Positions 18,150 through 64,000 are shown, counted from the first letter of the stretch. The stretch: 64,000 nucleotides of DNA from Candidatus Omnitrophota bacterium (GCA_026416665.1 JAOAET010000055.1:2490-66489); one strand, 5' to 3'. Notes: generated from the letters alone by a model not told the origin. Made by a program: numbers and translations.

Positions 18150-18509
18150 CTATTTGTCTTGATAATTTTTGATAACCCAGTTAATATATTCTTTTAAAAT
18201 ATTTTGTGTTTCTTTATTAGTTTCAACAAATTGAATACGGGTTAGAAAAGTATTGTTAGAATCTGTATTTTCTGATGCCACAACTTTACCCTTGACTTCT
18301 GTTAAATCAAAAGGACGAGAAGGTATTTTAATTCGTAATACTATAGTATCAGAAGGATTAAATCTTTTACCTGTTAGAAGTGATACGCCTGTTTCACTTA
18401 TATCACGCACTGTGGAGATGTCCCATTTTGGAAGATTTCCCTCCTCAAAAAAACTATATTGGATAAAAAGAGAAGACTTTATACGGAAAGCTTTTCTTTT
18501 TTCTTCCAT
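18150..18509 (-). CDS. PilZ domain protein
   Basis: 119 aa; RKAFRIK and DISETGVSLL motifs. Confidence 0.65.
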   Translation of the reverse strand: MEEKRKAFRIKSSLFIQYSFFEEGNLPKWDISTVRDISETGVSLLTGKRFNPSDTIVLRIKIPSRPFDLTEVKGKVVASENTDSNNTFLTRIQFVETNKETQNILKEYINWVIKNYQDK

Positions 18510-18539
18510 ATTATTCTCTTAGAAATTCAGTTGTATTTG

Positions 18540-18615
18540 TCGGGGCGAGTGGACTTGAACCACCGACCTCTTGAACCCCATTCAAGCGCTCTAATCCAAA
18601 CTGAGCCACGCCCCG
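18540..18615 (-). tRNA. tRNA-Pro (anticodon GGG)
   Basis: Cloverleaf read by hand: acceptor CGGGGCG/CGCCCCG, anticodon loop AUGGGGU, T-arm GGTTCAAGTCC; no encoded CCA. Confidence 0.8.
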
Positions 18616-18627
18616 AATATTTCTTTG

Positions 18628-19641: not shown

Positions 19642-20029
19642 CTGGGCCTAAAAGACGAGTTTTCTCAGTTATCTCCTGAGAGTCTTTTTCGCGAATAGTT
19701 AAAAATTTTACACCTATATCAAAACTTGTATCAGAAATTTGTTGAATTCTGACTACTTTGGCTATAATACCATGCTGATAAATTAAGGAATAGCGTTCTA
19801 TTTCCGCACAAAATGTTAATACACTTCTATCAAAGGATAACCATACAATGTCATTGATATTTACGGGTTGTTTAATAGTACAACGTAAACCTTTATTACT
19901 AACATCAACGGTATATCCCTGAAAAAGTTTAAGTAATGTTTCTGGTTTACAGACTTTATAAGATAATGGCGAAGAATAGGGAATACGAACAAATTCTCTA
20001 CGTTCTGGTCCTTCATAATTTTCTGACAT
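19634..20029 (-). CDS. PilZ domain protein
   Basis: 131 aa; RREFVRIP and DVSNKGL motifs. Confidence 0.6.
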   Translation of the reverse strand: MSENYEGPERREFVRIPYSSPLSYKVCKPETLLKLFQGYTVDVSNKGLRCTIKQPVNINDIVWLSFDRSVLTFCAEIERYSLIYQHGIIAKVVRIQQISDTSFDIGVKFLTIREKDSQEITEKTRLLGPDA

Positions 20030-30903: not shown

Positions 30904-31234
30904 TTGACCTTATGATGATAAAAAAAAGTAAAATAATTATTAGTGCAGAGACAATGTAAAAATCATTGAAATAAAAAAAATCAATTAACTTATCCCAGAG
31001 GCTTTCTTGTTTCAAAGAAGATAACACGATTGGTTGTTTCTGTTTAAACTCTTCGATTTGTTGGCGTTGGAAACGCAGATACTGACCACCGATTTTATAG
31101 GCAGGTATTTTCCCTTCCTCAGCCAAGTCAATGACTTCTTTTTCAGAACACTTAAGTATCTGCGCTACTTCACGAACAGTTAATAATTTATCCTTAGACA
31201 TTTTTATTTGCTTATTTTGCCTGAAGCAATCCAA
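30896..31234 (-). CDS. membrane-anchored HTH_17 (excisionase/MerR-like) DNA-binding protein
   Basis: LLTVREVAQILKCSEKEVIDLAEEGKIPAYKIGGQYLRF HTH followed by a C-terminal TM helix (IVSALIIILLFFIII). Confidence 0.5.
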   Translation of the reverse strand: MDCFRQNKQIKMSKDKLLTVREVAQILKCSEKEVIDLAEEGKIPAYKIGGQYLRFQRQQIEEFKQKQPIVLSSLKQESLWDKLIDFFYFNDFYIVSALIIILLFFIIIRSNA

Positions 31235-31707
31235 GCATCAATTGCCTTGCGTTCAAATCTCCATTCGTTAGCCTGTTTTATAGCCGGGATCTTTCCTTGA
31301 TTAGCCCAATCAATAATAGTATTGATTTCAACTTCTAAATAACGAGCCAACTCTTCCGCAGAAAGAATCTCTGCCAACATCTGACAGCGGCCGTTAAATA
31401 TACCTCCATCAGAAATAATAAGACGATTAGGATAAATATCTCCATCTACGACAGCCGTAGAAAGTATTTCCAAACTTTCACGAGCAGTAATTTTACCTCG
31501 CACTTTACCTTCAATGATGATAGTATCACCGATTATATCCGCAGTAACCATTGCGTTAGGACCGATAGTTAACACACCTCTTGCATCCAGTGTCCCTTCA
31601 AACTTTCCATTAATCTTTAAGTTAACAGGATCCTTAAAAGTAAGTGTTCCTTGCATCGAGGCATCTACGTCTAGAAATTTTTCATCTATTTTTCTACGAA
31701 GGGCCAT
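31204..31707 (-). CDS. bactofilin domain fused to a C-terminal HTH_17 DNA-binding domain
   Basis: Residues ~20-110 have a bactofilin (DUF583) beta-helix repeat pattern (GxxEGxLxxxGxLxIG...VxGDIxGDxIIIxGKVxG). The C-terminus LSAEELARYLEVEINTIIDWANQGKIPAIK..WRF is an excisionase-type HTH. Confidence 0.6.
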   Translation of the reverse strand: MALRRKIDEKFLDVDASMQGTLTFKDPVNLKINGKFEGTLDARGVLTIGPNAMVTADIIGDTIIIEGKVRGKITARESLEILSTAVVDGDIYPNRLIISDGGIFNGRCQMLAEILSAEELARYLEVEINTIIDWANQGKIPAIKQANEWRFERKAIDAWIASGKISK

Positions 31708-38594: not shown

Positions 38595-41500
38595 ATGCGC
38601 CAAAATTCAAGAGATAAAGAAGTAAGATACAAGTTAACTGAGACGGGAAAATTTATCATAGAAAATTATAATTCTGCAAAACCTTTAGCAAATTTTTTCC
38701 CTGGTATTGCAGGTAAATACGGCATCCCGATGTGGGTTTTTTATGTAAACCGTGGTCAAGGTATAGCTTGTTTTGGAATCGACGGGAAAGACCATGCTAT
38801 TTTAGAGTTTCAACCTGCAAATAAAGCATGGCAACAGACTTCTATTCTTGGCTTTAGAACATTCATAAAATGCCACTCTAACCGCAGATGTTTCTACTAC
38901 GAACCTTTTCACAATGGTCTATCTAATTTAGAATATAAAATTTTCAATTATATATGTATGAGTTCTTATGATCTACAATTAGAAGAGATTAATTATACGA
39001 TTGGTTTGAAAACATCGGTGAAATACTTTACGATTCCTAATGATATTTTTGCTGCATTAGTTCGAGTTGTTACTATAGAGAATATATCTGATAAACCTAT
39101 AGAGCTAGAAATAATAGATGGTTTACCACGAATTGTGCCTTATGGAATTGCCAATCTCTTTTTGAAAAAACTGTCGCGCACTATTGAGGCTTGGATGCAT
39201 GTTGAAAATTTAACCAGATCAATACCTTTCTATAAGATTGATGTGGATCCTATTGATCGCCCTTATGTGTTAAAGATTAAAGGTGGCAATTTCTATATGG
39301 CCTTTAAGGAATGTAACTCAAACTTTCAAATAATTAAACCAATAGTGGATCCTGATATCATTTTCGGGCTAATTAATGACTTTTCGATTCCGCGTTTATT
39401 TCTTTCTTCTGAAAACTTTATTTATCCAAAACAGCAACAAATTCAATGTAAAACACCTTGTGGATTTCTACATACTAATTTTAAACTTGATATTAAAAAT
39501 AAACAAACCTATTTTAGTGTAATCGGTCACTGTAAAGATTTGGATGAACTTAATAAAAAAGTAACTAAAAAAATTCTCACTGTTGGTTACCTTAACGAGA
39601 AGGAAAAAGAAAATGAACAGATAATTAAAGAATTACAAAATGAAATTAAAACTAACTCTAGTTCTTGGGCATTTGACTATTATTGTCAACAGACTTATCT
39701 AGACAATCTTTTGCGTGGCGGTACACCTGTAACATTTTCTTTGGCGCAGAATAAAGCGGTCTTTTATCTTTATTCACGTAAACATGGTGACCTTGAAAGA
39801 GACTACAACAAGTTTCAAATTCAACCAACTTATTTTTCGCAAGGTAATGGTAATTATCGTGATATTAACCAAAATCGTCGAGTTGATGTATGGTTTCATC
39901 CAGAAATAAAGGATTTCAATATCATTGTTTTCTTAAATCTTATACAACTTGATGGCTTTAATCCTTTGGTAGTCAAAGGGGCATCTTTTACTGTTGATGA
40001 TTGGCAAAATTTACAGCTTTCTTTAAATAAGGTGATGAAGGAAGAAGATTGTAAGAGAGTTCTCTCTTTTTTGGAAAAACCGTTTACGCCTGGAAGTTTG
40101 GTTATGTTTGTTAAAGAAATGCAAATAAAAATAAAACTAACCTATGATGAATTAATTGCTTTAGTAATAGGTTATTGTCATCAGAACTTTGAAGCAGAAC
40201 ACGGTGAGGGATTTTGGATAGACCATTGGCATTACAATCTTGATCTTTTGGAAAATTATTTTAATCTTTACCCAGAGGAGCTAAGAAATTTAGTTTTTGA
40301 TAAAAAAGTTTTTACATTCTATGACAACTGGCATGTAGTTGCCCCTAGGAGTAAAAAATATGTATTATATGAAGGTAAATTACGCCAACTAAATTCAGTT
40401 GTGATTGATGAAGAAAAGAAAAAATTAATCATTTCCCGTAAAAGTTTTGTACATTGCGTTCATTCGGAGTTTGGTTTAGGTTCTGTTTATTATACTACAC
40501 TTATAAATAAACTGTTTTGTATCTTAGTAAACAAGTTGGCTAGCTTCGATCCATTTGGAGTGGGTATAGAGATGGAGGCAGATAAACCTAATTGGTTTGA
40601 TGCTTTAAATGGTCTACCTGCTCTATTTGGTTCCTCTAGTTGTGAGACATTTGAATTAAAAAGACTTTGTTTATTTCTAAAAAAATTAATTTTACAAGCT
40701 AAGGTAGAAAAATTCTATCTTTGTTCAGAAATTTATGAATTTCTGATGGCAGTTTCGGAATGCATAAATGAGTACTTCTCAACAGGTGATGTAACGCGTG
40801 ATATGGATTATTGGGATAAAACTTATTGCTTGAAAGAATCTTTCCGTGAAAAAATAAAACTAGGGGTAAGCGGTAATGAAAATGAGTTTACCGCAAAAGA
40901 TGCTTTAGCTATTTTAGAATCCGCCATAAAAAAGATAGATGTCGCTTTAGCCGCCTCAAGGTATCCGAATAAACCGCTGTATTGTGGTTATTTTATTAAT
41001 GAACCCCTGGAGTATCAATCAGAGAAAGGAGTTATTAAACCTAAGCGGTTTAAACAATACCGATTAGCGAATTTCCTTGAAGCACAAGTGCATGCGCTTA
41101 GAGTTATAGATAATCAAAAAGATGCTAAAATAATTTACCAAGCAACTAGAAATAGTTCTCTTTATGATAAGAAATTAAAAATGTATCGAGTAACTGGTTC
41201 GCTAAAGAAAATGCCGCTTGAGATTGGTCGCTGTACTGCATTTACTGCTGGTTGGCTTGAAAATCAGTCTGTTTGGTTACATATGGAATATAAATATTTG
41301 CTAGAAGTTCTTAAGAAAGGTCTTTATAAAGAGTTCTATCAGGATTTAAGAAATTGTTTAGTTTGTTTCCAGGAACCTGAAGTGTATGGACGAAGTATTC
41401 TAGAAAACTCTTCTTTTATTGTTTCCAGTGCTTTTCCCTATCCTAAGCTTCACGGAAACGGTTTTGTTGCAAGACTTTCGGGGTCAACAGCGGAGTTCTT

Positions 41501-41831
41501 AGAAATGTGGTTACGTATGAACGTAGGTAATCAACCTTTCTTTTTAGATGAAAAAGAACAATTAAGTTTTCGCCTTGCTCCTATTTTGGCAGGATGGCTT
41601 TTTTCAAAGGATAAAAAATATTCATTTAAATTTTTGGGGACCATTACCATAACTTATTATAATTCCTCTAGAAAAGATACATTTGGTGGAAAAGCAGTAA
41701 AACCAGTTAAAGTTATTCTGAAAAACCAGCAAACTACTGTTGCAGAATTTAATTCAAATATAGTCCCCGCCCCTTATGCTGAGCAAATTCGTAACCGCCA
41801 AATTACTGATATAGATGTAATCCTTGCTTAG
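38595..41831 (+). CDS. large hypothetical protein (1078 aa); possibly a glycoside hydrolase/phosphorylase-like multidomain protein
   Basis: Long uninterrupted ORF with its own promoter and RBS, no signal peptide, Trp/Tyr-rich. No diagnostic motif could be assigned by eye. Confidence 0.5.
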   Translation: MRQNSRDKEVRYKLTETGKFIIENYNSAKPLANFFPGIAGKYGIPMWVFYVNRGQGIACFGIDGKDHAILEFQPANKAWQQTSILGFRTFIKCHSNRRCFYYEPFHNGLSNLEYKIFNYICMSSYDLQLEEINYTIGLKTSVKYFTIPNDIFAALVRVVTIENISDKPIELEIIDGLPRIVPYGIANLFLKKLSRTIEAWMHVENLTRSIPFYKIDVDPIDRPYVLKIKGGNFYMAFKECNSNFQIIKPIVDPDIIFGLINDFSIPRLFLSSENFIYPKQQQIQCKTPCGFLHTNFKLDIKNKQTYFSVIGHCKDLDELNKKVTKKILTVGYLNEKEKENEQIIKELQNEIKTNSSSWAFDYYCQQTYLDNLLRGGTPVTFSLAQNKAVFYLYSRKHGDLERDYNKFQIQPTYFSQGNGNYRDINQNRRVDVWFHPEIKDFNIIVFLNLIQLDGFNPLVVKGASFTVDDWQNLQLSLNKVMKEEDCKRVLSFLEKPFTPGSLVMFVKEMQIKIKLTYDELIALVIGYCHQNFEAEHGEGFWIDHWHYNLDLLENYFNLYPEELRNLVFDKKVFTFYDNWHVVAPRSKKYVLYEGKLRQLNSVVIDEEKKKLIISRKSFVHCVHSEFGLGSVYYTTLINKLFCILVNKLASFDPFGVGIEMEADKPNWFDALNGLPALFGSSSCETFELKRLCLFLKKLILQAKVEKFYLCSEIYEFLMAVSECINEYFSTGDVTRDMDYWDKTYCLKESFREKIKLGVSGNENEFTAKDALAILESAIKKIDVALAASRYPNKPLYCGYFINEPLEYQSEKGVIKPKRFKQYRLANFLEAQVHALRVIDNQKDAKIIYQATRNSSLYDKKLKMYRVTGSLKKMPLEIGRCTAFTAGWLENQSVWLHMEYKYLLEVLKKGLYKEFYQDLRNCLVCFQEPEVYGRSILENSSFIVSSAFPYPKLHGNGFVARLSGSTAEFLEMWLRMNVGNQPFFLDEKEQLSFRLAPILAGWLFSKDKKYSFKFLGTITITYYNSSRKDTFGGKAVKPVKVILKNQQTTVAEFNSNIVPAPYAEQIRNRQITDIDVILA

Positions 41832-41888: not shown

Positions 41889-41916
41889 TTGAAAAGATCA
41901 GATTCTGTGTTATACT
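41889..41916 (+). promoter_or_regulatory. candidate promoter (TTGAAA-16-TATACT) driving the riboswitch leader
   Basis: -35 at 41889-41894, -10 at 41911-41916, about 40 nt upstream of the GEMM-like element. Confidence 0.3.
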
Positions 41917-41959
41917 TTTTTTTGGAAATAAGAAATCTTTGAAATCTAGGTAGTCCTAC

Positions 41960-42050
41960 TGATAAAGGCAAACTAGCAGAAATGCTAGGGCGCAAAGCGA
42001 CAGACCCGCTTACTTAAATGGGTGGCTGCGCTGCCAAAGGGGAAGATGTA
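41960..42050 (+). ncRNA. candidate c-di-GMP-I (GEMM) riboswitch aptamer
   Basis: GGCAAAC-[CUAGC AGAAAU GCUAG hairpin]-GGGCGCAAAGCG matches the GEMM-I core; compare Vc2 GGGCAAACC-[hairpin with GAAA]-GGGACGCAAAGCC. A second hairpin CAGACCC...GGGUGGCUG follows. It is a GC-rich island in AT-rich intergenic DNA. Confidence 0.5.
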
Positions 42051-42057
42051 CTAAAAA

Positions 42058-42086
42058 CCCTAAAGAAAGCCTTTAGGGTTTTTTTG
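42058..42086 (+). terminator. intrinsic terminator; candidate riboswitch expression platform
   Basis: CCCUAAAG-AAAGC-CUUUAGGG hairpin followed by UUUUUUU. Confidence 0.55.
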
Positions 42087-42089
42087 TTG

Positions 42090-42186
42090 CCCTAGCTTAG
42101 GTTTGCCCGCCTGCCGCGTAGGCGGTCTGCCAATTTTTTGGTTGCGTTTAATGCGGCAGGTCGAAAAGTAGGCTAGGGTTTTTTAA
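42090..42186 (+). promoter_or_regulatory. long GC-rich imperfect hairpin ending in a U-tract (second terminator or attenuator) just before the RBS
   Basis: CCCUAGC...CCUGCCGC[loop]GCGGCAGG...GCUAGGG then UUUUUUAA; RBS AAGGAGGAG at 42201. Confidence 0.4.
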
Positions 42187-42215
42187 TTTATCTTATGATT
42201 AAGGAGGAGACGGTT

Positions 42216-42479
42216 ATGGGTGAGTATACAAATGAAAAAAGCCAAAGGGTAGTTACGTTTCTTACGCGTGAAGAAGTAGATTTTCTTGATAAATTAGGAA
42301 AAGATGCACTTTTTAGTTCAGGTACTAAACTTTCACGGGCAAAACTTATTGCTTGGATAGTGGATATTCTTCGTGGTCTAAAAATTAACGGAGAGAATCT
42401 AAAAGAACCTAAAGACCTTGAGCAGAGAATTATTAAGAGTTTAAAGCTGTTGGAGAATAATTCTTTACAGCCAGAGTAA
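42216..42479 (+). CDS. small ribbon-helix-helix-like putative regulator
   Basis: Strong RBS AAGGAGG 8 nt upstream. The ORF-track start at 42195 would put the RBS inside the gene. RVVTFL beta-strand then two helices (REEVDFLDKL; SRAKLIAWIVDIL). Confidence 0.45.
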   Translation: MGEYTNEKSQRVVTFLTREEVDFLDKLGKDALFSSGTKLSRAKLIAWIVDILRGLKINGENLKEPKDLEQRIIKSLKLLENNSLQPE

Positions 42480-42910: not shown

Positions 42911-42945
42911 CTCTTTTAAAGAGCCTTTTCTTTTACTTTTTTAAC
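42911..42945 (+). terminator. intrinsic terminator for the plus-strand small genes, overlapping the stop codon of the convergent usher-like gene
   Basis: GGCUCUUU-UAA-AGAGCC hairpin followed by UUUUCUUUUACUUUUUU. Confidence 0.35.
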
Positions 42946-45813
42946 TGGGATATTATAGACAATGGTTGAGCCTTCTTCAAGTGTAATATCCTTGTAAATA
43001 CTAACTTCCGGGAGGTATTCAGTGGGAAGACTTGAAAGATCAAGTGTTAAACGGTAAAAACCTGCTTTAATTTTATTAAATAGATACAAACCACTACTAT
43101 CTGTTACTGCTTGAATATCAGGGGTAATGAATATCCTAACTTTAGATAAGGGTATATCAACACTGCCAAATTTTCCATCTTCGTCCACATCCTCAAAAAC
43201 TATACCGCGTATTTCTGTTTTTATAGCTAATCCAAAATCAACACGGCTGACTTGTGATTGAAAGACAGTTACTTCTTGTTTCTCAGGAGTAGTTAATACG
43301 TAGTTAGTAGGAATAGAAGCTGGATCAATACTTACTAGTATACTTTTCCCTTTTACTTTAGGAAATAGGAAATAACCATTTTTGTTGGAAATACGTGTTT
43401 GGCTAATGGACGTGATTATTACTATATCGCTAATAGGCGGGTCCTCTATATCTCTTATGCCATCAGCATCTATATCTTTAAAGACATATCCCTCAATCAT
43501 CCCAACAGGAAGCCATTTGAACCCTGTATCCCAGAGATACCTTACTCCTGCGCGGATGTCCCATTCTGCCCATTTAGTTTTATTTTTATCTTCAGGCCAA
43601 ATCCAACGCAAACGACTGGATAAATATGTCTGTAGTTCATCTTTTATGCTGTAAGATAATTCTTGATACCACTCCAGATAATCTTGCCCTGCAAGAAGAC
43701 ATATTGGAGAGGATGTCTTTTCTTCATTACGATAAACTAGGCGCTCTGTTAAGAAAAATGGTGTAGTTTTAAGTTGGCTATTAAAATCAAAACCAGTTTC
43801 AATTGCCCAAGGTTGTGCCTGTTCATCAGAATAGATACGTTTTGTCCAATTGGTTTCGTGGCTTAAGAAATAATATAATTGACCAATTAAACCGATTCTA
43901 AAACCCGTAAGTAACTTATGATTATAGTAATCAATTTCAGAAGAATTTTTATAAGAATAATTTTGGTAGCGATAGGTAAAATAAGTATTTAAGCGTTGTA
44001 TACTTTTAGAAATGTGGTATAAACCAACCCCTATGTTATGAGCAACCAAAGCAGTTAAACGGCCTGGGTTATTCAAAAAGGTATAATCAACCCTTGCGCG
44101 AGTTTGTGAGTTTAAATATGTTGTAACATCTATAAAAAAATCTTGATTATATTTAGAAGTTTTAGAAGGATTTGGGTAGCGGCGATCGCGAAAGATATCA
44201 AGACTTGTTTGTATATCTAACCAACTTACTGGGTTTAAGCTTAAGGTGCTAAGTATCCCCAGTTCACCTGCTCTCCAACCCAAACCTGTAAGAGAAAAAA
44301 ATGAAGTAGAAATATTGCGTATTTGATTGTGGAGTTTAAAATAGTTAGCTGTTAGTCCGAAATCAATTAGATTAGCAAAATGTTTACTATCAAAAGCAGA
44401 TTCCCAGATTAATTGTTTTCTTTGATGTTCAAATTGAAATTTAACATCATAAGTGTTTTTAGGTAAATTTTTGTCTCTGTCTTTTCCATATCCAAAGAAA
44501 CTTGAAAATTCGTATCTTTGTCCCAATACAGGATTAAAACTAAAATTAATGCCAGATAAATAAATATTTCGTTCTTGGTTATACTGCGGTAAAACAAATG
44601 AACTCCATAAGCCACTTGCGCGTTCTTGTCCCCAAAAGATATTGTAGTCAAACATATTCTTTTTAACTGGTGAATAAAACTGAAATCCACGAAGATATGC
44701 ACCACCAAAAGAAAGATTAGAAAGAGTGGGAGTAAAATCCACAGCACGTAAAGAAAAACCACGAAACTTTTGCCATATACCATTGTCTAACGCTATACTT
44801 AATGACCAAGGATTCTCTAACGAATTTTCCATTTGCTGTAAAATAAACTTACTCGAAAATAAACCGTAAGGAGTTTCACCACTTATTGATAAGTTATGTG
44901 TATAGAGATAGTAAGAGCGTTCCAGATTGCTTAGATTTTTTCCGTCATAGTAAGAAAGCCAATCGACGTTATATTCAATTTTAAAATTACGCATCTTTTC
45001 TTGCTTTTGTGCAATTTCTTCAGCATATGTAGGTTCTGTTGGTTTAGGTGGAATAACATAAATCTTAATAGTATAGCGATTGGTTTGGTCCCAAATATGT
45101 AAAACAGTAGAGCCATATTCTTTAGCAAATAAAGAAATTTGATTATTGTTGATACGCTTTATTAATATTATATTTGGATTTAACAAAAGAAACCTTTGTA
45201 TTTCATCTACTTCTACAATTGCGGTTTTGCCTCTTTCCAGTTGAATTTCTTCATCTTTTAAGCTAAAATTTATTTTTTTAGTAATTCCCTCTTGATTATT
45301 TGTTTCTACCTTTTGAGGGAATTCTTTATCTATGGATTTGTCTTTTTGGTTTTTTGAGGGAGAAATTTTTTGAGAAGAAACTCTTTGAGAAGAAACTGTA
45401 TCTTGTTTAAAGTTATATTCTGAATTGACTTCTAATTGCCCTAAGCCAGTTATTCTGTTAGATAGTTTTTGAGTGTTCGAAAAGTTGTTAAGTGGAACAG
45501 TATCTTCTGGGTAAAAAGCTTTTATGGGTTCTTCTGAATTATTAGAAAATATAAAAGATTTTTGTTTTGTAGTTAAATAATTAATATATTCTTTTGCAGG
45601 TGTAAAATCCGGATTTGCCAGAAGTGCCTTTTTAAATTCCTGCAAAGCCAAGTCATAACGGCCAGCATTATAATACTTAATTCCTGCTTCAAAAAAAAAT
45701 TCACAGGCAAGGTACGAAGCATATATCGGGGGTATTTGAATTAAAAAGACTCCTATGCTAATAAAAAGATATGTAAATATACGAAAGTAACTTATTAATT
45801 TGATGCCTGCCAT
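42916..45813 (-). CDS. outer-membrane usher-like protein: signal peptide, TPR motif, beta-barrel region, two C-terminal Cna-B/SdrD-B-like domains
   Basis: 965 aa. N-terminal TPR-like YYNAGRYDLALQEFKKALLANPDF. Central ~550 aa with alternating aromatic/polar beta-strand pattern. C-terminal GYVFKDIDADGIRD...NKNGYFLF and GIVFEDVDEDGKFG...DSSGLYLFNKIKAGFYRL repeats. Confidence 0.55.
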   Translation of the reverse strand: MAGIKLISYFRIFTYLFISIGVFLIQIPPIYASYLACEFFFEAGIKYYNAGRYDLALQEFKKALLANPDFTPAKEYINYLTTKQKSFIFSNNSEEPIKAFYPEDTVPLNNFSNTQKLSNRITGLGQLEVNSEYNFKQDTVSSQRVSSQKISPSKNQKDKSIDKEFPQKVETNNQEGITKKINFSLKDEEIQLERGKTAIVEVDEIQRFLLLNPNIILIKRINNNQISLFAKEYGSTVLHIWDQTNRYTIKIYVIPPKPTEPTYAEEIAQKQEKMRNFKIEYNVDWLSYYDGKNLSNLERSYYLYTHNLSISGETPYGLFSSKFILQQMENSLENPWSLSIALDNGIWQKFRGFSLRAVDFTPTLSNLSFGGAYLRGFQFYSPVKKNMFDYNIFWGQERASGLWSSFVLPQYNQERNIYLSGINFSFNPVLGQRYEFSSFFGYGKDRDKNLPKNTYDVKFQFEHQRKQLIWESAFDSKHFANLIDFGLTANYFKLHNQIRNISTSFFSLTGLGWRAGELGILSTLSLNPVSWLDIQTSLDIFRDRRYPNPSKTSKYNQDFFIDVTTYLNSQTRARVDYTFLNNPGRLTALVAHNIGVGLYHISKSIQRLNTYFTYRYQNYSYKNSSEIDYYNHKLLTGFRIGLIGQLYYFLSHETNWTKRIYSDEQAQPWAIETGFDFNSQLKTTPFFLTERLVYRNEEKTSSPICLLAGQDYLEWYQELSYSIKDELQTYLSSRLRWIWPEDKNKTKWAEWDIRAGVRYLWDTGFKWLPVGMIEGYVFKDIDADGIRDIEDPPISDIVIITSISQTRISNKNGYFLFPKVKGKSILVSIDPASIPTNYVLTTPEKQEVTVFQSQVSRVDFGLAIKTEIRGIVFEDVDEDGKFGSVDIPLSKVRIFITPDIQAVTDSSGLYLFNKIKAGFYRLTLDLSSLPTEYLPEVSIYKDITLEEGSTIVYNIPVKKVKEKAL

Positions 45814-46679
45814 GAAATTAAATTCCCCTTATCATCAATTTCTATAGCAATTTCTTTCACAATTATTGGACCTCCTTTGAATCCAGTCTCTTCTTGTGAT
45901 TTCCCTGCATCAAATGTCATTACAATGTCATATATTCCTTTTAATAATTTTTGATGACATATTGCCTCAATTAAGTGACTATCTCCAGGTAAAGTATATA
46001 CCCGATTGAATTCTCCTCTACAGAAAACCATCCCTTGTTTATCCAAAATATGAAATTGACCATCTAATGTTATATCTTGATTACCAATATTATGTATTAT
46101 ACCTGTTAACTTTAAAGCTAAAGATTCTTTATCTTGTAATATTGATAAAGAATTGAAGGTTATATCACGTTTCAATGGTTCAACATCAATATAGAAAAGT
46201 GAACCTATGCGTAATTTAATATTCATTTCTGTACCTTGACGAGATTGGTTACCTATATCTGTTTCAAAGAAAAGAACAGTGACATAAGTTCCCTCAGCTT
46301 GAGAGGGGACCTTTATGGTATACTTTACTTTTTGTTTACTTATAGCAGGCAAGATAAATTCATTAGGGAAAAAACTAATCCATCGCGATGCAGAACGTGG
46401 CAATGTTCCAGAAGGGTAAAAATCTTTTGCTCCATCATGTGAACTAGTATATATCCAGTCTTGAGCATAGACCTTAACGAGAATATCCTGATTAGTGGGA
46501 TTCTCTACTTCAATGGTACTACTTTTTGTTTCATTGGGTTTAAGTAATAAACGAATCTTTGTATGGTCAAGATTAAGACTAGCTGGAAAAATACAAGATA
46601 TAAAAAAGGGATTAAAAAAGATTAAACAAACTACACAAAAAATTTTTATATAATTTTGATAAGAATTGCCTTTGTGCAT
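45795..46679 (-). CDS. PapD-like periplasmic pilus chaperone
   Basis: Signal peptide. LDHTKIRLL...SSTIEVENPTNQDILVKVYAQDWI aligns with PapD LDRTRAVF...SMTLDISNDNKQLPYLAQAWI. MNIKLRIGSLFYIDV matches the chaperone IKLFYRP motif. Confidence 0.6.
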   Translation of the reverse strand: MHKGNSYQNYIKIFCVVCLIFFNPFFISCIFPASLNLDHTKIRLLLKPNETKSSTIEVENPTNQDILVKVYAQDWIYTSSHDGAKDFYPSGTLPRSASRWISFFPNEFILPAISKQKVKYTIKVPSQAEGTYVTVLFFETDIGNQSRQGTEMNIKLRIGSLFYIDVEPLKRDITFNSLSILQDKESLALKLTGIIHNIGNQDITLDGQFHILDKQGMVFCRGEFNRVYTLPGDSHLIEAICHQKLLKGIYDIVMTFDAGKSQEETGFKGGPIIVKEIAIEIDDKGNLISWQASN

Positions 46680-46749
46680 AATCTTTTATTCAATAGTTTT
46701 TTATTTTTTATAAGGCGCCCCTGTTTATTAAACAAGAGCGCCTTTATTT

Positions 46750-47343
46750 TTATTGCGGAGTTAGAGTTAAATAAACTGAACCGCTATAATTTCCGGGAGT
46801 TTTATTTTGTGAAATTGGCGTTACTCCACTGTTATCTCCACTTCCGGTAGCAATACCATAGTATATTCTTAACCAGCCATTTTGTAAGTCGTTTTTTGTA
46901 TAGTATTTTCCATTACTGTTGGCATAACTGACATAGCCATTAGTCAAGTTTGCGGCAGAAGTGTTAGTAATTTGACGAACAAAAGATACATTGATGTGAT
47001 TATCCAAATTACTGCCACCTGGTCCGGTTACTGATTCAGCATTGTGGGTTACAGTCCAGTTTGCTGCATTTGTGTTTATTCCAACATCAACGAAGAAATA
47101 ATATAGTGAACGAAATATACGGTAAGTATTATCCAATTGTAATTGCCCAAAGTTGATTTCACTTGCAGGTTCATATACTGAGGGATTGCCTACCGTTACG
47201 CGAGTAATAGCCGCTGTAATACTAGAAACATTGCCTATAGTAGCACGAACAGGGATATTTGCGGTTCGAATTTGGGCATAGACAGCTGCGGTTACACTCA
47301 TGGTCAGGATAAGACACAGCATTTTGGTTATAATTTTTTTCAT
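46750..47343 (-). CDS. secreted pilin-like subunit (Csu/spore-coat-protein-U-like)
   Basis: 197 aa; signal peptide, Ser/Thr/Asn/Gly-rich beta-rich sequence, C-terminal GNYSGSVYLTLTPQ resembling the SCPU-domain terminal strand. Confidence 0.45.
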   Translation of the reverse strand: MKKIITKMLCLILTMSVTAAVYAQIRTANIPVRATIGNVSSITAAITRVTVGNPSVYEPASEINFGQLQLDNTYRIFRSLYYFFVDVGINTNAANWTVTHNAESVTGPGGSNLDNHINVSFVRQITNTSAANLTNGYVSYANSNGKYYTKNDLQNGWLRIYYGIATGSGDNSGVTPISQNKTPGNYSGSVYLTLTPQ

Positions 47344-47387
47344 AATTTTTCACCCCCTTTCTTTGCTGATGTCCACACTTTTTTGGT

Positions 47388-48758
47388 TCAACACTCTGAA
47401 ATTATATAGGTAATAGAGGTTGTGTATTCTCCTGCGGGTATCTCTAACGAAGGAATAAGTTCATAAATAATAGTAAATGAATCAGGAGAACCTTTTTTGT
47501 CAGAGACAAATAAAACGGTTTCTTGTGTTTCAACTGGTATAGGATCAATAAATTTTAGATTTCCTTTAGTATCGTTACTTACTAAACGCATTCTGAAATT
47601 TTTTTTTGGAATGGTTACTCCATCCTTATTAACTAATTCCGAACTAAGTTTTTGACTTACTTGGTAGGATTTGCCACTATTTGAAATAATAGTTAGTTTT
47701 ACTTCATTTGTTTGTATCTGAAAAACATTCGGTTTTACATCAAATTCTATTATACCTGATTTTGTGGGTTCGGCAATTAAATTGAAGACTTTGGGGATAT
47801 TAAATTCAAGATCATATTCTTTAAGTATTTTCTGGATATTGTTATAGTCATTAACAAATAAAGAAAGTCTACAATGGTATTTACCTGTTTTAAACCTATC
47901 GGGGTTCAATAAACTATAAACAATGGTTAAATAATCAGTTTTTTCAGAAATTCTTGAAGTATATATTATTTCGGGCTTTAAAGATAAAGGTCTAAGTAAA
48001 GTTTTATTAGCATCTTTATCTTTTTGTAAAAAACACTGAATAGTATTTTCTGGCAAGATATCCGAATACTGATTTTGGCAAGCACAAGAAAGCATTTGAG
48101 AAATTGTTAATGGATAAGAGTAAGTGTTGGTAATTCTTAGTTCACAGAAACCACTTAGCGAGCCATCGGGTTGAGGCGTAAGTCGTAATAAAGAAGATTC
48201 AGGAAAAAATTCTATCTGGATATTCTGGTTTTGTTTTACTTCAACAGATATAGGTAAGATAATTGTTATTGGCATAACTTGTGACTGAATAGGTTCTAAA
48301 GTAAAAGCAAATCTTCCTTTGTAAAAACCCGGAGAAAAAGGTCCGGATAGACTGTATACTAAACGAAATGAATCAGATGAGCCGTTTGAATCAGAGGTAT
48401 ACAAAATATTTCTAGTTAAGGAAACTTCTGTTGGGTCAGATAAACGCAAGCTACCAAAAAGATTACTACCTCTTAGGGTAAAAACAGTTAATTGATGCGG
48501 TTTAATAGTTACACCCTCTGTATTAGTCAAAGGGTCAAGTAAGGTTTGTACTACTTGATATTGGCTTCCAATATCTGAGGTAATATTAATTATCAATTCT
48601 TTAGAAATAGTTTGCTGGCTGGCACTAATAGAACCAAAGCGCAGTTCAAAACCACCTTCTAATGGTCGTGCTGAAATAGAAAAAGCAGCCTCCGCTAAAT
48701 GAAAAGATAAAATCAATCCAGCTAATATAAGTAAAATAGAAACAAAAAGTTTTTTCAT
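47388..48758 (-). CDS. secreted protein with two tandem Ig-like domains (candidate tip adhesin or minor subunit)
   Basis: 456 aa; signal peptide. Internal duplication: residues ~30-140 and ~330-450 share SxxYQVxQxL...GVTI...DP..V...LxxSDxxGSxDSFxxxYxL. Confidence 0.5.
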   Translation of the reverse strand: MKKLFVSILLILAGLILSFHLAEAAFSISARPLEGGFELRFGSISASQQTISKELIINITSDIGSQYQVVQTLLDPLTNTEGVTIKPHQLTVFTLRGSNLFGSLRLSDPTEVSLTRNILYTSDSNGSSDSFRLVYSLSGPFSPGFYKGRFAFTLEPIQSQVMPITIILPISVEVKQNQNIQIEFFPESSLLRLTPQPDGSLSGFCELRITNTYSYPLTISQMLSCACQNQYSDILPENTIQCFLQKDKDANKTLLRPLSLKPEIIYTSRISEKTDYLTIVYSLLNPDRFKTGKYHCRLSLFVNDYNNIQKILKEYDLEFNIPKVFNLIAEPTKSGIIEFDVKPNVFQIQTNEVKLTIISNSGKSYQVSQKLSSELVNKDGVTIPKKNFRMRLVSNDTKGNLKFIDPIPVETQETVLFVSDKKGSPDSFTIIYELIPSLEIPAGEYTTSITYIISEC

Positions 48759-48932
48759 CTTTTTATAGTTTAAGAGTTGATATTTTTTTGTTATAGGAAA
48801 TCTACAATAAAAAAAACCGAAACGACCCTTCTTATTCCTCTATCGTTCCGGCCTCCCTATTTATTCCCCAAACCGGTTTCTTTATGTTTTAAAGTATAGC
48901 TCTTTTTTCAAATTAAGTCAAGATAATTCACC

Positions 48933-51716
48933 TTAAAATCTTCGTCTATAATATAAACGAATAATATGTTGTGTATCAATAGTCTGTAAGCCACCGCCAA
49001 AAGGATCAGCAACAGTTAATTCCAATAATGGATAATTAGGTGATACACCGTAATCAAAAACTAACTCGTCGTCCTCACAGAAGCGATATCTTGTCTCAAA
49101 AAATATATTATGGTGACCTACCTTCTTAGAATCACCTGCTAATATTCGATCGAGGTCATTCCACATTGAATAAGTATAGCGCAGATATAATCCTAACTTT
49201 TTCAAGGGCAAATAGCCAATTTCAACCCCAAAGTGATTTATATCGTCAGATATTGGTCCTGCCTGCTCAAACTCATTACGGGTATAATCAAGGTAGATTT
49301 CCAGCTTTTCAATGGGTAAAAAGCGCACACCAATTTTAAAGATATCATAAAAAGGATACGGTGGCTGAGGAAATAAATGTTGGTCATACAGAAATACACG
49401 GTCTCTTAAATAGGTTTTTCCAGCTTCATAATACACCCAAGATGGTTGCGCACTATTTAAAATACCACGAGGAAAGTTATCATAGGCAACGGTATAATCA
49501 TTAGTGCGTTCGTATATTCCATTTACTGTTAGCCAATCAGTAAAGGCATATTCTAGGCCAAAAGAACCAGTTTTAAGAGATGGGTCTTTTCCATCAGCAA
49601 TAGGAGTTAATGACCAATCAGTTAAATAAATACCGGTTTTTGCATCATAAATAAAAGGGTCTACTGCCGCTTTTGTTTTTGGCATATCCTGATAAATTCC
49701 CAGAATTTTACCTGTAAGGTTATCAGTGATGTGCCAGGTTAGTTCATCTCGTGTAACAGTTTCAACATACTTACCGTCAGTAGTATGGACATTGCGGATA
49801 TCAAAAAGATTATCTACTTTTTCTTTCCAAGAGGCCTCCCACCGTAAACCTATTACGTCTCTTCCAATATCAATACCATCTCCAATTGCAAATGGTTTAA
49901 TATCGCTGTAACTAGAAGGTGGATAATAAAGTCCACTGTAAAAATATTCAAGTGGTCTTCTAAAATGGATATGTCGACTCCAGAATTGGTCACGTCTTGT
50001 TTGGTGGTAATTTGCTAGTGCTGGGTCAAATCCCTCATCCATATGAGATGCAAATAGCCTTATTTTAGAGAAAAATTCTTCGTTTTTTTCTGGTTGAATT
50101 GCATCATAAGACGTATCCAAAATTGACTGTCCAGGATAGCGGGTTACTAAAGAAAAATAGTATGCATTTCCACGTGCTTTGCTTCTAAAGACACTATTAG
50201 TCAAATCGTATTCTGAGGCAGAGTGTGCTACTTCAACAGCTAACTTTATCCCTTCTATTACTTCATAGAGCGCGTCAACACCAAGTACATTATTACGCAT
50301 ATCAGTTGAAGATTCATCTTCATTAAAGCCAAGGCGTAGAGTATGGATTGCACCAATTTTTATATTATCTGATAAAGACTGAACCAGACGCGTTGCTCCT
50401 GCAATATTATCATAATCAGAGTAATCTTGCCAAGGATCTTTCGGAGATGCCCAACTGGTGCTAAATTTTGTATAGTCGGTTGGTTTTGCCTCTAGAGTCA
50501 AACCGCGTAGTTGAGTTAATCTTACTCCGTTTGAATCGCGCACCATAAAGGAAATAGAATTATTCCAATAACCTTTTCTGAAACTGACTGGACTTGCGTT
50601 AGAATTAAAATTACCTGGTTGCCATTTTCTTAACCAAGGAGAATCTTCCCAGTAAATATGATTATTAGAAAGTTTTAGAGGGTCATCGGAGGTATATGCT
50701 TGGGCTTCGGTAGCAAAAGGAAATATACGAATACTTAAAACATCAGCAGTTTTATAATCTACCCACAGCTCTCTAACTGGTTGAATTTCACGATGGATTT
50801 TTAATTCTGGAATAGTAAATATATTTCCCCAAGTAGAAGTTATGGTGGTGGGAACAGTCTTTCCATCTTTTACTTTTATTTCAGGGATATTGAATGAATC
50901 TCCATTTAACAGTGTATATACCGACTCGTTAAGGATTCTTGAGGTATTTGACCAATATTTTAATTGTATTTTTGCACTGTCTCCGCCATCACCTGTTAGA
51001 GTAATGCTATCTGTTTTACCAATGAATGTCCACGGGTCAAAATTTATACCTGTGTGGAATCCAAAACCCTCTTGTGTCTCGGGTGTATCAATATTAAACT
51101 TCAAACGGCTATAAATAGCGGGATCAAAGGTATTTTCTTTTCTATTTAATCCTTCTTGCGACTGAATTCGCCAATTCTTCTCATTTAAATCAAAGTTTGC
51201 CCTTTTGGCAATTAAGTGATCATCCTCATAACCTAAAGCTAATTGTAATTGTCCTGAGATATTTACTGCATCGGATTTTTCTTTTTGAGCAGATATGGAT
51301 TCTTCTTTAGGTACTTGAAACTGGGCAAAACCAGGTGAATAATGTTCAGGATATTTTTGTGCTAATTGCGTTTTTTCATCTTCAAAAGAGGTTCTACTTA
51401 ATTTTTCAAGGGTTAAAGTAATAATCTCTTCTCTAGTTAATGATTTTTTAACCTGAGGATAACATTTCTTTTCAGTTATTTTCTGTATTGGTGGTTCGGT
51501 AAGTTTTTCTATGTATTCTAAAGCGGTAGGATTATTAGGGTCAACCAACAAAACTTTTTTAAATTCGTGTAAGGCCTCTTGATAGGAACCGTTTTTATAA
51601 TAATTAATACCCATTTCAATAAGGGCATTTACTGCTTGAGATTGCGCATTTACATAAATAGGATAAGCAAAGATAATTGCACAAATAATCAAAATCATTT
51701 TTATTGTTCTTTCCAT
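48933..51716 (-). CDS. outer-membrane beta-barrel protein with N-terminal TPR motif (paralogue of 42916..45813)
   Basis: 927 aa; signal peptide. INYYKNGSYQEALHEFKKVLLVDPNNPTALEYIEKLT matches the other protein's YYNAGRYDLALQEFKKALLANPDFTPAKEYINYLT. Large aromatic-rich beta region ending in C-terminal ...YYRRRF. Confidence 0.6.
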   Translation of the reverse strand: MERTIKMILIICAIIFAYPIYVNAQSQAVNALIEMGINYYKNGSYQEALHEFKKVLLVDPNNPTALEYIEKLTEPPIQKITEKKCYPQVKKSLTREEIITLTLEKLSRTSFEDEKTQLAQKYPEHYSPGFAQFQVPKEESISAQKEKSDAVNISGQLQLALGYEDDHLIAKRANFDLNEKNWRIQSQEGLNRKENTFDPAIYSRLKFNIDTPETQEGFGFHTGINFDPWTFIGKTDSITLTGDGGDSAKIQLKYWSNTSRILNESVYTLLNGDSFNIPEIKVKDGKTVPTTITSTWGNIFTIPELKIHREIQPVRELWVDYKTADVLSIRIFPFATEAQAYTSDDPLKLSNNHIYWEDSPWLRKWQPGNFNSNASPVSFRKGYWNNSISFMVRDSNGVRLTQLRGLTLEAKPTDYTKFSTSWASPKDPWQDYSDYDNIAGATRLVQSLSDNIKIGAIHTLRLGFNEDESSTDMRNNVLGVDALYEVIEGIKLAVEVAHSASEYDLTNSVFRSKARGNAYYFSLVTRYPGQSILDTSYDAIQPEKNEEFFSKIRLFASHMDEGFDPALANYHQTRRDQFWSRHIHFRRPLEYFYSGLYYPPSSYSDIKPFAIGDGIDIGRDVIGLRWEASWKEKVDNLFDIRNVHTTDGKYVETVTRDELTWHITDNLTGKILGIYQDMPKTKAAVDPFIYDAKTGIYLTDWSLTPIADGKDPSLKTGSFGLEYAFTDWLTVNGIYERTNDYTVAYDNFPRGILNSAQPSWVYYEAGKTYLRDRVFLYDQHLFPQPPYPFYDIFKIGVRFLPIEKLEIYLDYTRNEFEQAGPISDDINHFGVEIGYLPLKKLGLYLRYTYSMWNDLDRILAGDSKKVGHHNIFFETRYRFCEDDELVFDYGVSPNYPLLELTVADPFGGGLQTIDTQHIIRLYYRRRF

Positions 51717-62076: not shown

Positions 62077-62567
62077 ATATTAAAGATATGTTTCCTTGAG
62101 GTGATATTATTATAGGCAACTGCTAACGCAAGTGCATCGCTGGCATCCTCAGAATATTCGCAAGGTAATGAACGGAATTGGCAACTTATCATGCGTTTTA
62201 TCTGTTGTTTTGAAGCCAGCCCTTTTCCCACAATAGCTTTTTTAACTCTAGTTGCAGGCAGTTCTTCAATTTTTATACCACAAGAGGCCGCTGCAAGTAA
62301 AAAAACACCACGTGCATGTCCTAAAATAAATGCAGTTGTTGGATGACGATAATGTACATAAACTTTCTCAATCACCATGATATCGGGACGGAATTGTTTT
62401 ATTATTTTGATTGCTTCTTCATAAAGCAGTAATAAACGCCTTGCGAAAGTTTCTTTATATTCGGTTTTGATTGTTCCTGCACAAAGTAAGGTTTGTTTAT
62501 TCTTTGTAGATTCAATAATACTAAAACCTGTTACCGTTAAAGCTGGGTCTATCCCTAGTATTCTCAT
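62073..62567 (-). CDS. ruvC: crossover junction endodeoxyribonuclease RuvC
   Basis: 164 aa; ILGIDPALTVTGFSII, RNase H-fold catalytic acids. Confidence 0.9.
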   Translation of the reverse strand: MRILGIDPALTVTGFSIIESTKNKQTLLCAGTIKTEYKETFARRLLLLYEEAIKIIKQFRPDIMVIEKVYVHYRHPTTAFILGHARGVFLLAAASCGIKIEELPATRVKKAIVGKGLASKQQIKRMISCQFRSLPCEYSEDASDALALAVAYNNITSRKHIFNI

Positions 62568-63319
62568 TACTGCCCACTTGAAATTTGTTCCATAATTTCA
62601 TCAGGGATATCAAAATTTGCATATACCTGTTGAACATCATCGTGTTCTTCTAGAGCATCAATCAGTGCTAATACAGCTTTTGCATCGGTTGCATTTAGTT
62701 TTATAGTGCTAGAAGGAACCATTGTTATTTCTGCCTGCTCCCAAGGAATTCCTTTCTTCTGAAGAGCTTGTTTAACATTTTCAAAATCCTGAGGTTTTGA
62801 ATATATTTCATAGGTATCCGATTCACTTTTAACATCTTCAGCGCCAGCATCTAACACTATTGATAATAACTCGTCTTCACTAATAATTTCTTTTTTTACG
62901 CTGATACATCCTTTCATCGAAAACATCCAAGAAACCGATCCGCTTCCTGCTAAGTTACCATTTTTCTTTGACATAATGTTGCGAATCTCAGCAGTTGTGC
63001 GATTTTTATTATCGGTAATAGCCTCAATAAGTAATGCTACACCTGCTGGTGCATAACCTTCATAGGTGACTGACTCATAAGTAACACCTGGTAATTCACC
63101 TGTTCCGCGCTTAATAGCCATCTTTATATTTTCCTGAGGCATATTGGCCTCTTTGGCGCGAGCAATGGCAGTTCGTAATTTGGCATTAGTTTCGGGATTA
63201 CCTCCTCCTTCTCGCGCGGCAACCGTAATTTCTTTAATAATTTTAGTATACATCGCGCCTTTTTTGGCATCAGCAGCTGCTTTTTTTGCCTTATTAGTTT
63301 TCCATTTTGAATGACCTGA
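62567..63319 (-). CDS. yebC: YebC/PmpR family DNA-binding transcriptional regulator
   Basis: MSGHSKWKTNKAKKAAADAKKG N-terminus with RBS GGAGGAA. The ORF-track start at 63547 is an artefactual extension into rnpB. Confidence 0.9.
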   Translation of the reverse strand, partial: SGHSKWKTNKAKKAAADAKKGAMYTKIIKEITVAAREGGGNPETNAKLRTAIARAKEANMPQENIKMAIKRGTGELPGVTYESVTYEGYAPAGVALLIEAITDNKNRTTAEIRNIMSKKNGNLAGSGSVSWMFSMKGCISVKKEIISEDELLSIVLDAGAEDVKSESDTYEIYSKPQDFENVKQALQKKGIPWEQAEITMVPSSTIKLNATDAKAVLALIDALEEHDDVQQVYANFDIPDEIMEQISSGQ

Positions 63320-63354
63320 CATTATTCCTCCTTGTTTATTTTCGTTAATTAATG

Positions 63355-63716
63355 AAATCGGACAGGCAGCATAAGCCGGGTTCTGTCTATTGTGTGTGGC
63401 CATTTTTCTTAAGATCTCTGTTACCAGTAGATCTTTTGCAGCCAACCCGAGACTCATATCGGAGGGGGCTTCTCCTTGTCTCCTATTTGGCCTTGCTCCA
63501 CGTAGAGATTGCGACGTTTCACCTCGTAGCATGATTAAGTTTACCACGATATTCTCGGTAAACCTAATTTGCTACTACTCGTCTCTGTAGCTCTAATCCT
63601 CTTTAAGTAATAACTTACTTAAAGGGTCGGGTGTTACCCGCTACGTTGCCCACTGGAGCCCGGACTTTCCTCCCTTCTGACAAAGCAGAAGAGTAGCCAC
63701 CTGCTGCCTGCTCCTT
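63355..63716 (-). ncRNA. rnpB: RNase P RNA (bacterial type A)
   Basis: Minus-strand GGAGGAAAGUCCGGGCUCC (P4) at 63650-63668, ...GGGUAACACCCG..., 3' ACAGAACCCGGCUUAUGCUGCCUGUCCG pairing with 5' GGAGCAGGCAGC (P1). About 360 nt, GC-rich. Confidence 0.85.
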
Positions 63717-64000
63717 CATATATTCCTTGATAGCCTCAGAAGCTAACTTATCTGCACGGTTGTTTTCTAAACGAGGTATATGTTCTATAACAACCTTTTT
63801 AAATTTAGAAATTAAATTTTGTGCTTCGTTATAAAGTTGTTTAAGCCTTGGGTGTTGCACTTTATATATATTTTTAAGCTGGCGACATAATAGTTCACTA
63901 TCAGTTCTTACTATGACAACATCAGGTTTTAAATGATAGGCTTGTTCCAAGCCAGAAAGTAAAGCAGTGTATTCAGCAACATTATTGGTATTATGACCAA
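63615..64000 (-). CDS. RNase H (type 1) family protein, N-terminus outside the window
   Basis: GHNTNNVAEYTALLSGLE ... IEHIPRLENNRADKLASEAI RNase HI motifs. The frame stays open to the window end. The C-terminal 30 codons overlap the rnpB 5' region. Confidence 0.6.
   Translation of the reverse strand, partial: GHNTNNVAEYTALLSGLEQAYHLKPDVVIVRTDSELLCRQLKNIYKVQHPRLKQLYNEAQNLISKFKKVVIEHIPRLENNRADKLASEAIKEYMKEQAAGGYSSALSEGRKVRAPVGNVAGNTRPFK

Follow-up and report, generated by a model that had tools for sequence, protein, structure and literature searches.

The window that we analyzed is a 64,000-nucleotide stretch of DNA from a Candidatus Omnitrophota bacterium. As an earlier note on this DNA had described, a GC-rich element lies in it between the end of an ORF for a 1078-aa protein (41831) and the start codon of a small gene encoding 87 aa; its features are collected in Table 1. 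Following the small gene is an ORF for a 105-aa protein, the probable second gene of an operon, whose product would be a small exported protein, and a terminator scan marks a terminator-like hairpin after it (42909-25).

Transcription of the element would start from a sigma-70-type promoter that the earlier note had placed about 40 nt upstream of the aptamer. A consensus scan located this promoter about 41 nt upstream, with 10/12 agreement to the consensus and a transcription start expected near 41923-25, and TTGAAA-N16/17-TATACT is kept upstream of the aptamer in approximately 26 of 34 related loci. The 5′ leader carries a small hairpin and a box, TTGACAATTAGGnnnnCCTACTG, that is conserved in relatives, and the leader is more stably folded than every one of 200 dinucleotide shuffles (z -4.1). 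Downstream of the aptamer are two terminator-like elements, T1 and T2, and a Shine-Dalgarno (SD) sequence, and this order of aptamer, T1, T2, and SD recurs nearly throughout the relatives.

Table 1. Positions, in the window, of the riboswitch leader, its structural elements, and the genes downstream
Feature	Position	Strand	Basis
Promoter TTGAAA-N16-TATACT, TG extended -10, sigma-70-type	41889-41916	+	consensus scan
5′ leader, small hairpin TAGG-tagt-CCTA	41942-41957	+	sequence, conservation, unconstrained fold
c-di-GMP-I (GEMM-I) aptamer	41958-42039	+	RF03167 match, covariation
P1	41960-61 with 42035-36		
Core G-C/G-C pairs	41968-69 with 41992-93		
P1a, GAAA loop	41973-78 with 41983-88		
P1b	41996-42006 with 42021-32		
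T1, terminator-like: A5 + hairpin + T7	42053-42085	+	sequence, folds, conservation
T2, terminator-like: long imperfect hairpin + T6	42089-42184	+	folds, sequence
Predicted switching (anti-aptamer) sequence, the T2 5′ arm	42089-42107	+	complementarity, folds
SD AAGGAGG (42201-07) and 87-aa gene (ATG 42216, stop 42477-79)	42201-42479	+	
Probable second operon gene, 105 aa, N-terminal hydrophobic signal-like segment	42557-42925	+	ORF

Structure and covariation of the aptamer

Searching both strands of the whole 64-kb window with cmscan at gathering thresholds returned a single riboswitch match, the aptamer listed in Table 1. The best model was RF03167 (c-di-GMP-I-GGC), which aligned over positions 1-80 of 80 with a score of 68.7 bits (gathering score 59) and an E-value of 3.8e-14. 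One more model of the same clan, CL00126, scored above its own gathering score on the window and was masked by clan competition. The earlier note had proposed a class I c-di-GMP riboswitch, with a conserved core made up of GGCAAAC, a hairpin, and GGGCGCAAAGCG. This significant match to the c-di-GMP-I clan bears out the proposal, and the core, GGCAAAC-TAGCAGAAATGCTA-GGGCGCAAAGCG, is present at 41967-41999.

We then compared the element with 34 standard homologous aptamers. Across these, 93.7% of cells are paired in the Rfam structure, compared with 28-43% in slid-alignment controls. Compensatory changes occur in 11 of the 21 aptamer pairs, and 0 of 500 shuffles matched these values; the helices thus covary in homologous intergenic regions, which was the check suggested with the original proposal. 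P1 is a weak helix, with 70.6% pairing across the 34 homologues. By Vc2 numbering, we take the ligand contacts G20, A47, and C92 to be G41967, A41994, and C42034 in the window. These contact nucleotides are found in 33/34, 34/34, and 34/34 aligned homologues, respectively, and all 34 share CGCAAA as well as the CC to which C92 belongs. A47 is the nucleotide that stacks between the two guanines of c-di-GMP.

The P1/P1a/P1b fold is the same as that of RF01051 riboswitches such as Cd1 of Clostridioides difficile and Vc2 of Vibrio cholerae, with which the window also shares the invariant core (AAAGGCAAAC ... CGCAAAG ... GCC) and the triad G20/A47/C92. Unlike in those systems, the P1b helix is a short one without an 11-nt tetraloop receptor. 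The GNRA tetraloop of P1a docks into a P1b receptor in type 1 c-di-GMP-I members only; in the window the P1a loop is GAAA (GUAA in most relatives), and P1b has no counterpart of the CUAA...UAUG receptor in the RF01051 consensus. Model score, covariation, and contact nucleotides indicate that the element is a genuine class I c-di-GMP aptamer, for which ligand binding is predicted.

Tandem terminators and predicted switching

T1 has an 8-bp stem (CCCTAAAG/CTTTAGGG, 42058-65 with 42071-78) with the loop AAAGC, followed by T7 at 42079-85. T2 is a longer hairpin (42089-42178) with the 3′ arm GCTAGGG (42172-78) and T6 at 42179-84, approximately 16 nt before the SD. Both are G+C-containing hairpins with U-tracts, at which termination is predicted from sequence. 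A simple terminator scanner missed both, probably because the A-tract of T1 pairs into its U-tract and because T2 is long. The tandem terminators of the earlier note, including the second imperfect hairpin with its U-tract just before the ribosome-binding site, are both present, and they are kept in most of 44 related loci obtained from a scan of species-representative genomes. In most of these relatives, a hairpin and U-tract abut the SD.

The 5′ arm and loop of T2 are complementary to the two strands of the aptamer core. In the window, GCCCTAGC (42089-96) can pair with GCTAGGGC of the aptamer (41984-91), and GTTTGCC (42101-07) with its GGCAAAC (41967-73). In most relatives, the T2 5′ arm complements the P1a 3′ strand together with GGGCGC, and GTTTGCC, which can pair with the invariant GGCAAAC, is often found in the T2 loop or 3′ part. 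The pairing partners vary between loci: L026 has the T2 arm GCGCCCTGGCA opposite the aptamer sequence TGCTAGGGCGC, while L028 and L031 have CGCCGGGGCGC/GCGCCCCGGCG as a complementary aptamer/T2-arm pair that covaries with the window's version. Similarly, the loop-closing pair of P1a changes from A-U to G-C in L016, L028, and L031, and is matched by an A-to-G change in the T2 arm.

Permutation tests point to both pairings, with a sum of 610 against a null of 477 ± 14 for P1a-3′/GGGCGC (~9 sd; p ≤ 0.05 in 14/30 loci) and of 531 against 428 ± 13 for J1/2-GGCAAAC (~8 sd; p ≤ 0.05 in 11/30 loci), though these statistics overstate independence because the loci are phylogenetically related. RNAduplex runs of the whole aptamer against T1 and T2 gave long, loopy duplexes, with a clear peak for T2 only, at the P1a 3′ strand and GGGCGC; z-scores of the duplex energies against dinucleotide shuffles were only moderate.

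Folding of the window's transcript through T2 gives two distinct structures. In the unconstrained fold (-100.3 kcal/mol), 41967-74 and 41984-92 are paired with 42089-42107, leaving both the aptamer core and the base of T2 unformed. When the aptamer is enforced (-91.9 kcal/mol), T1 and T2 are both formed. The gap of ~8 kcal/mol between these folds is of a size that could be paid by tight ligand binding. Once the aptamer is unfolded, the 5′ leader can pair with the T2 3′ arm, and in the ligand-free fold it does so right before the U-tract; such a long-range helix might still terminate transcription to some degree. The full-leader minimum free energy (MFE) structure shows the T2 switch in ~8/30 loci, which is weak evidence either way because switching in the c-di-GMP-I class is considered to be under kinetic control.

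We consider it likely that the element is a canonical c-di-GMP-I riboswitch that controls the two-gene operon by transcription attenuation, with OFF logic, in a locus kept throughout Omnitrophota. Without c-di-GMP, the T2 5′ arm would invade the aptamer core, so that T2 could not form and RNA polymerase would read into the gene. Binding of c-di-GMP would keep the aptamer folded and leave the arm free to close T2, stopping transcription at its T6 tract. High c-di-GMP would then mean less of a small DNA-binding protein that, in the biology we infer, acts on the adjoining surface-structure genes. The logic follows from the anti-aptamer being the 5′ arm of T2 itself: a ligand-locked aptamer would release the terminator, and an ON switch is rejected on these grounds. 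Cd1 of Clostridioides difficile is likewise an OFF switch with an intrinsic terminator, and the window resembles it in having an intrinsic terminator after the aptamer and, probably, the same logic.

In the window, T1 is present in the predicted folds with and without the aptamer enforced, and its removal costs 9.4 kcal/mol. If T1 terminates efficiently, little transcript would reach T2. Of the two terminators, both present and conserved, T2 is thus the only one in the window with a clear alternative structure that depends on ligand. Here, T1 is probably a partial attenuator or a pause passed by every transcript, as judged from the folds; in part of the family, it is possibly ligand-gated.

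The conservation of T1 bears on this last point. Its stem, CCCTA..TAGGG (CCCUAAAG/CUUUAGGG), occurs once per locus and at the same position in 30 of the 44 loci, with near variants elsewhere, and its sequence is kept at a divergence at which helices without such constraint, P1b among them, change freely. The T1 loop often ends in UUGCC, and loop and 3′ arm together complement the invariant aptamer sequence UAAAGGCAA; in some relatives (L021, L014) the complement to the aptamer, at UAAAGGCAAAC, reaches 12 nt. In L017, L023, L028, L029, and L031, the MFE structure of a transcript ending at T1 has pairing between T1 and the aptamer in place of the T1 hairpin, and in L014 and L041, T1 is the sole terminator, with the gene directly after it. 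Complements of J1/2-GGCAAAC are, as noted above, enriched in the leaders. These features would suit a two-checkpoint OFF switch in which a single aptamer gates both terminators, each with its own anti-aptamer, and in which two successive chances of termination would let a ligand that binds slowly exert tighter or more sensitive control. We regard this arrangement as possible but doubtful. The window's complement is 7 nt only, set against a T1 favored by the 9.4 kcal/mol given above, and unbiased RNAduplex mapping finds no single consistent T1 target on the aptamer across loci. Furthermore, a local hairpin closed by a 5-nt loop would be expected to form faster than a distal pairing, and there is no clean compensatory change between T1 and J1/2, because J1/2 is nearly invariant.

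Two terminator-like hairpins per aptamer, the first with a family-wide conserved sequence, set the window apart from RF01051 systems. Repeated terminators in one leader are also a feature of tandem c-di-GMP-I riboswitches (doublets and triplets), in which, according to PMC9481103, each expression platform is paired with its own aptamer and the repeated terminator checkpoints are thought to sharpen the response. The window differs in having one aptamer for its two terminators, a layout absent from the tables of tandem arrangements that we consulted in that source (PMC9481103). Our literature searches returned no description of the Omnitrophota element or of a single aptamer with tandem terminators, and those on Omnitrophota and c-di-GMP returned nothing relevant.

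T1 looks strong (8-bp stem, A5 and U7 flanks), is ligand-independent in the window, and is second only to the aptamer in sequence conservation within the leader, all of which could also be expected if aptamer and T1 mainly made up a stand-alone short RNA ended constitutively at T1, a c-di-GMP-binding sRNA or sponge for which control of the gene is secondary. An abundant riboswitch-derived RNA has been reported from Bdellovibrio and would be a parallel. We find this reading unlikely, since the sequences after T1 complement the aptamer core and covary with it, which makes sense only on one shared transcript. In addition, a consensus scan finds no promoter-like site between T1 and the gene, and the aptamer is linked to the gene in 43/44 loci, including the two in which the gene directly follows T1.

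Finally, the T1 palindrome is a conserved inverted repeat adjoining the gene of a very conserved ribbon-helix-helix (RHH)-like protein, and might serve as a DNA operator for that protein, with autoregulation by roadblock instead of or besides termination. This is very unlikely, and we reject it as the main reading of T1: depending on the locus, the half-sites are separated by a loop of 2 to 9 nt, which favors an RNA hairpin over a rigid dimer operator; a U-tract follows every copy; and no second copy of the inverted repeat, for example at other promoters, is found in the 64-kb window or in the 6-kb related loci.

Canonical class or GGC variant

The likely reading, a canonical c-di-GMP-I riboswitch, has to be set against the best match to a variant model. 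By comparing the consensus lines of RF01051 (...GGGGACGC-A-AAgCc... cUgCCgaa, with ACGCAAA in the core) and RF03167 (...GGGACGC-G-AAgCc... cUGCcgaag, with ACGCGAA in the core), we derived a diagnostic position: the ligand-contacting cores differ solely at the nucleotide after the closing G-C pair, position 47. The window has A at this position (CGCAAAG at 41991-97), as do all 34 aligned homologues. Weinberg et al. (PNAS, 2017) reportedly defined the variant, and the 'GGC' in its name would refer to positions 20/47/92.

The RF01051 score for the window is not displayed owing to clan competition, and close relatives alternate between RF01051 (62-69 bits) and RF03167 (59-69 bits). The preference for RF03167, with which the window shares a compact P1b architecture, is best explained by this short P1b without the tetraloop-receptor motif rather than by the diagnostic nucleotide. 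Because the diagnostic G47 is absent, we file the element as canonical c-di-GMP-I and not as a GGC variant; by its binding-site nucleotides it is of the class named in the earlier note, although the best Rfam model is RF03167 and not RF01051. Although RF03167 scores best for the window and for about half of the relatives, it is highly improbable that the element is a c-di-GMP-I-GGC variant with an altered pocket that might sense a ligand other than c-di-GMP, given the A at 41994 and in every aligned homologue, the flipping of relatives between the two models at similar scores, and the second clan model that passes on the window. A c-AMP-GMP riboswitch (GEMM-Ib, A at position 20) is ruled out by the G at 41967; among relatives, only L033 has A at this position. 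More generally, when a variant model gives the best Rfam match, its label should be adopted only after the diagnostic nucleotide has been checked.

The presumed target gene family

In contrast to RF01051 systems, the target of this canonical riboswitch is an uncharacterized Omnitrophota protein family. A hypothetical protein from a Candidatus Omnitrophica MAG has the same sequence as the 87-aa product, for which there are 487 close homologues; those with a named source are nearly all from Omnitrophota, one being labeled Deltaproteobacteria. A profile search of 1.84 billion representatives gave 212 clusters only. The protein has no match in Pfam, NCBIfam, or PDB sequences, hhalign against six RHH sequences gave a probability below 1%, and a Foldseek search returned nothing significant. 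With a deeper alignment, AlphaFold reaches a pLDDT of 84.4 (56 for AF2 with a shallow alignment), and this confident model has an extended segment at 10-17, with the invariant RVVTFL, and three helices, at 18-35, 41-54, and 65-83, the last of them an additional one. At the level of fold, the modeled protein looks ribbon-helix-helix-like, in keeping with the earlier description of the downstream gene as RHH-like.

Longer homologues suggest what the domain may do. Among 13 that were scanned, 12 have a C-terminal PilZ domain and 3 an N-terminal receiver (REC) domain, the latter carrying the 87-aa-type domain in the output position. These fusions link the domain to c-di-GMP signaling independently of the riboswitch and support an effector role. 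CdbA of Myxococcus xanthus is a ribbon-helix-helix protein that binds c-di-GMP (PMC7156744). The 87-aa protein has no detectable sequence similarity to CdbA, and we propose that c-di-GMP here acts instead on the mRNA, or via the fused PilZ domain in relatives.

Aptamer and gene are consistently found together. Rfam models of clan CL00126 detect an aptamer upstream of the 87-aa-type gene in 40 of the 44 loci, directly in 39 and at 829 nt in L043, and L002, L015, and L039 have an aptamer that the model misses because of an insertion of 40-110 nt. This places an aptamer upstream of the small gene in 43/44 loci; in the remaining locus, L018, only 126 nt of sequence precede the gene. The gene for the 1078-aa protein upstream, which is homologous to a GH161 phosphorylase (PDB 9qqk, E 2e-230), is kept in 29/44 loci, and a homologue of the small signal-peptide-like protein is encoded downstream of the small gene in 24/44.

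A convergent gene for a 965-aa TPR/pil_N/SdrD_B outer-membrane protein adjoins the riboswitch and gene in 32/44 loci. The earlier note had tied the element to a pilus-like locus; synteny with this TPR/pil_N gene supports the tie, but the locus is weakly pilus-like, the 'fimbrial' character of the neighbors coming from one pil_N domain and weak matches. From synteny and fold, we infer that the 87-aa protein may be a regulator of this locus. Elsewhere in the window, three of the four stand-alone PilZ genes that had been claimed were found, at 17716-18072, 18150-18509, and 19634-20029, and no fourth was present among the window ORFs scanned. The three PilZ genes speak for c-di-GMP signaling in this organism and so for the likely reading of the riboswitch.

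Tentatively, and with somewhat less than even confidence, we put forward two linked readings: that the 87-aa protein is an undescribed RHH-like c-di-GMP output domain, and that a single aptamer gates two terminators. The domain would come under c-di-GMP control via a riboswitch in its stand-alone form (in Omnitrophota) or via PilZ fusion (in other bacteria), with a third form behind a phospho-receiver, and each of the two terminators would carry its own anti-aptamer sequence.

The c-di-GMP-I switch type is known; what is unusual is the conserved two-terminator platform in Omnitrophota. One aptamer with two terminators, including the sequence-conserved T1 hairpin, is a natural system for asking whether sequential checkpoints sharpen or sensitize a kinetic switch, and the PilZ and receiver fusions mark the domain as a signaling output domain worth characterizing. 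Omnitrophota are almost entirely uncultured. A single gene family that has a c-di-GMP riboswitch in all 43 related loci with enough upstream sequence, in a neighborhood of a GH161-type glucan phosphorylase gene and large outer-membrane or surface-structure genes, offers a testable entry into the c-di-GMP-controlled behavior of these bacteria.

Departures from the Rfam aptamer model

Eight homologous aptamers (L002, L015, L019, L020, L022, L027, L038 and L039, among the related Omnitrophota loci) carry a structured insertion of 40-110 nt that lies between the 3′ strand of P1a (GGG A/C) and the GGGGCAAAG core, where the Rfam model has no domain. Five of the eight score just above the RF01051 cut-off (35-37 bits), and the other three (L002, L015 and L039) go entirely undetected. 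At L033:2795-2874, an aptamer upstream of a gene from the same family as the 87-aa gene of the window, the position equivalent to the ligand-contacting G20 is an A rather than a G (TAAGAGCAAAC). This substitution is the signature of c-AMP-GMP-sensing GEMM-I variants.

Conserved elements flanking the aptamer

Both a TTGAAA-N16/17-TATACT promoter and a transcribed box immediately 5′ of the aptamer, TTGACAATTAGGnnnnCCTACTG, are conserved (window 41889-41957; loci L001-L044, ~40-110 nt upstream of the aptamer). The TAGG/CCTA hairpin of this box is in competition with an extended P1, and in the predicted ligand-free fold of the window the box pairs with the 3′ arm of T2, the second terminator-like hairpin.

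The stem sequence of the first such hairpin, T1 (window 42058-42085; CCCUAAAG/CUUUAGGG), is kept at the equivalent position in ~30 loci, in genomes whose proteins are only ~60-70% identical. Unlike the stem, the T1 loop varies among loci. This conservation of the stem sequence is not fully covered by any explanation tested.

Gene context and domain architecture

The family of the 87-aa protein has no Pfam model. Among metagenomic proteins without known taxonomy, its domain is fused to a C-terminal PilZ domain (P0159, P0168, P0174, P0177, P0178, P0181, P0184, P0193, P0202, P0216, P0227 and P0238) or preceded by an N-terminal response-regulator receiver (REC) domain (P0190, P0233 and P0239). Elsewhere in the window, three PilZ genes form a cluster that also includes genes for glycerol-3-phosphate dehydrogenase and a tRNA (18540-18615). 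The combination of bactofilin and HTH_17 in the 167-aa protein is an unusual fusion. Two listed ORFs (62567-63547 and 63615-63950) overlap the RNase P RNA and are therefore probably spurious in part.

Features of the window and of the insertion-bearing loci
Feature	Position	Strand	Remarks
1078-aa gene upstream of riboswitch	38595-41831	+	match to solved GH161 beta-1,3-glucan phosphorylases
Run of large genes	42916-51716	-	convergent with riboswitch operon
Insertion-bearing aptamers	~200-330 nt upstream of gene, each locus		e.g. L020:2771-2889, L022:2731-2877
Three single-domain PilZ genes	17716-20029	-	118, 119, 131 aa
RNase P RNA, bacterial class A	63358-63711	-	162.5 bits
167-aa protein	31204-31707	-	bactofilin + C-terminal HTH_17 (excisionase-type)

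The 1078-aa gene is in synteny with the riboswitch in 29 of the 44 loci; its product has no Pfam match and aligns with PDB 9qqk and 9h8v at E ~2e-230. The run of large genes encodes two TPR-headed proteins ~930-965 aa long, of which one contains the domains pil_N, SdrD_B and CarboxypepD_reg, together with proteins of 294, 197 and 456 aa that have signal-peptide-like N-termini and no family match. This run may represent an undescribed surface or pilus-like apparatus.
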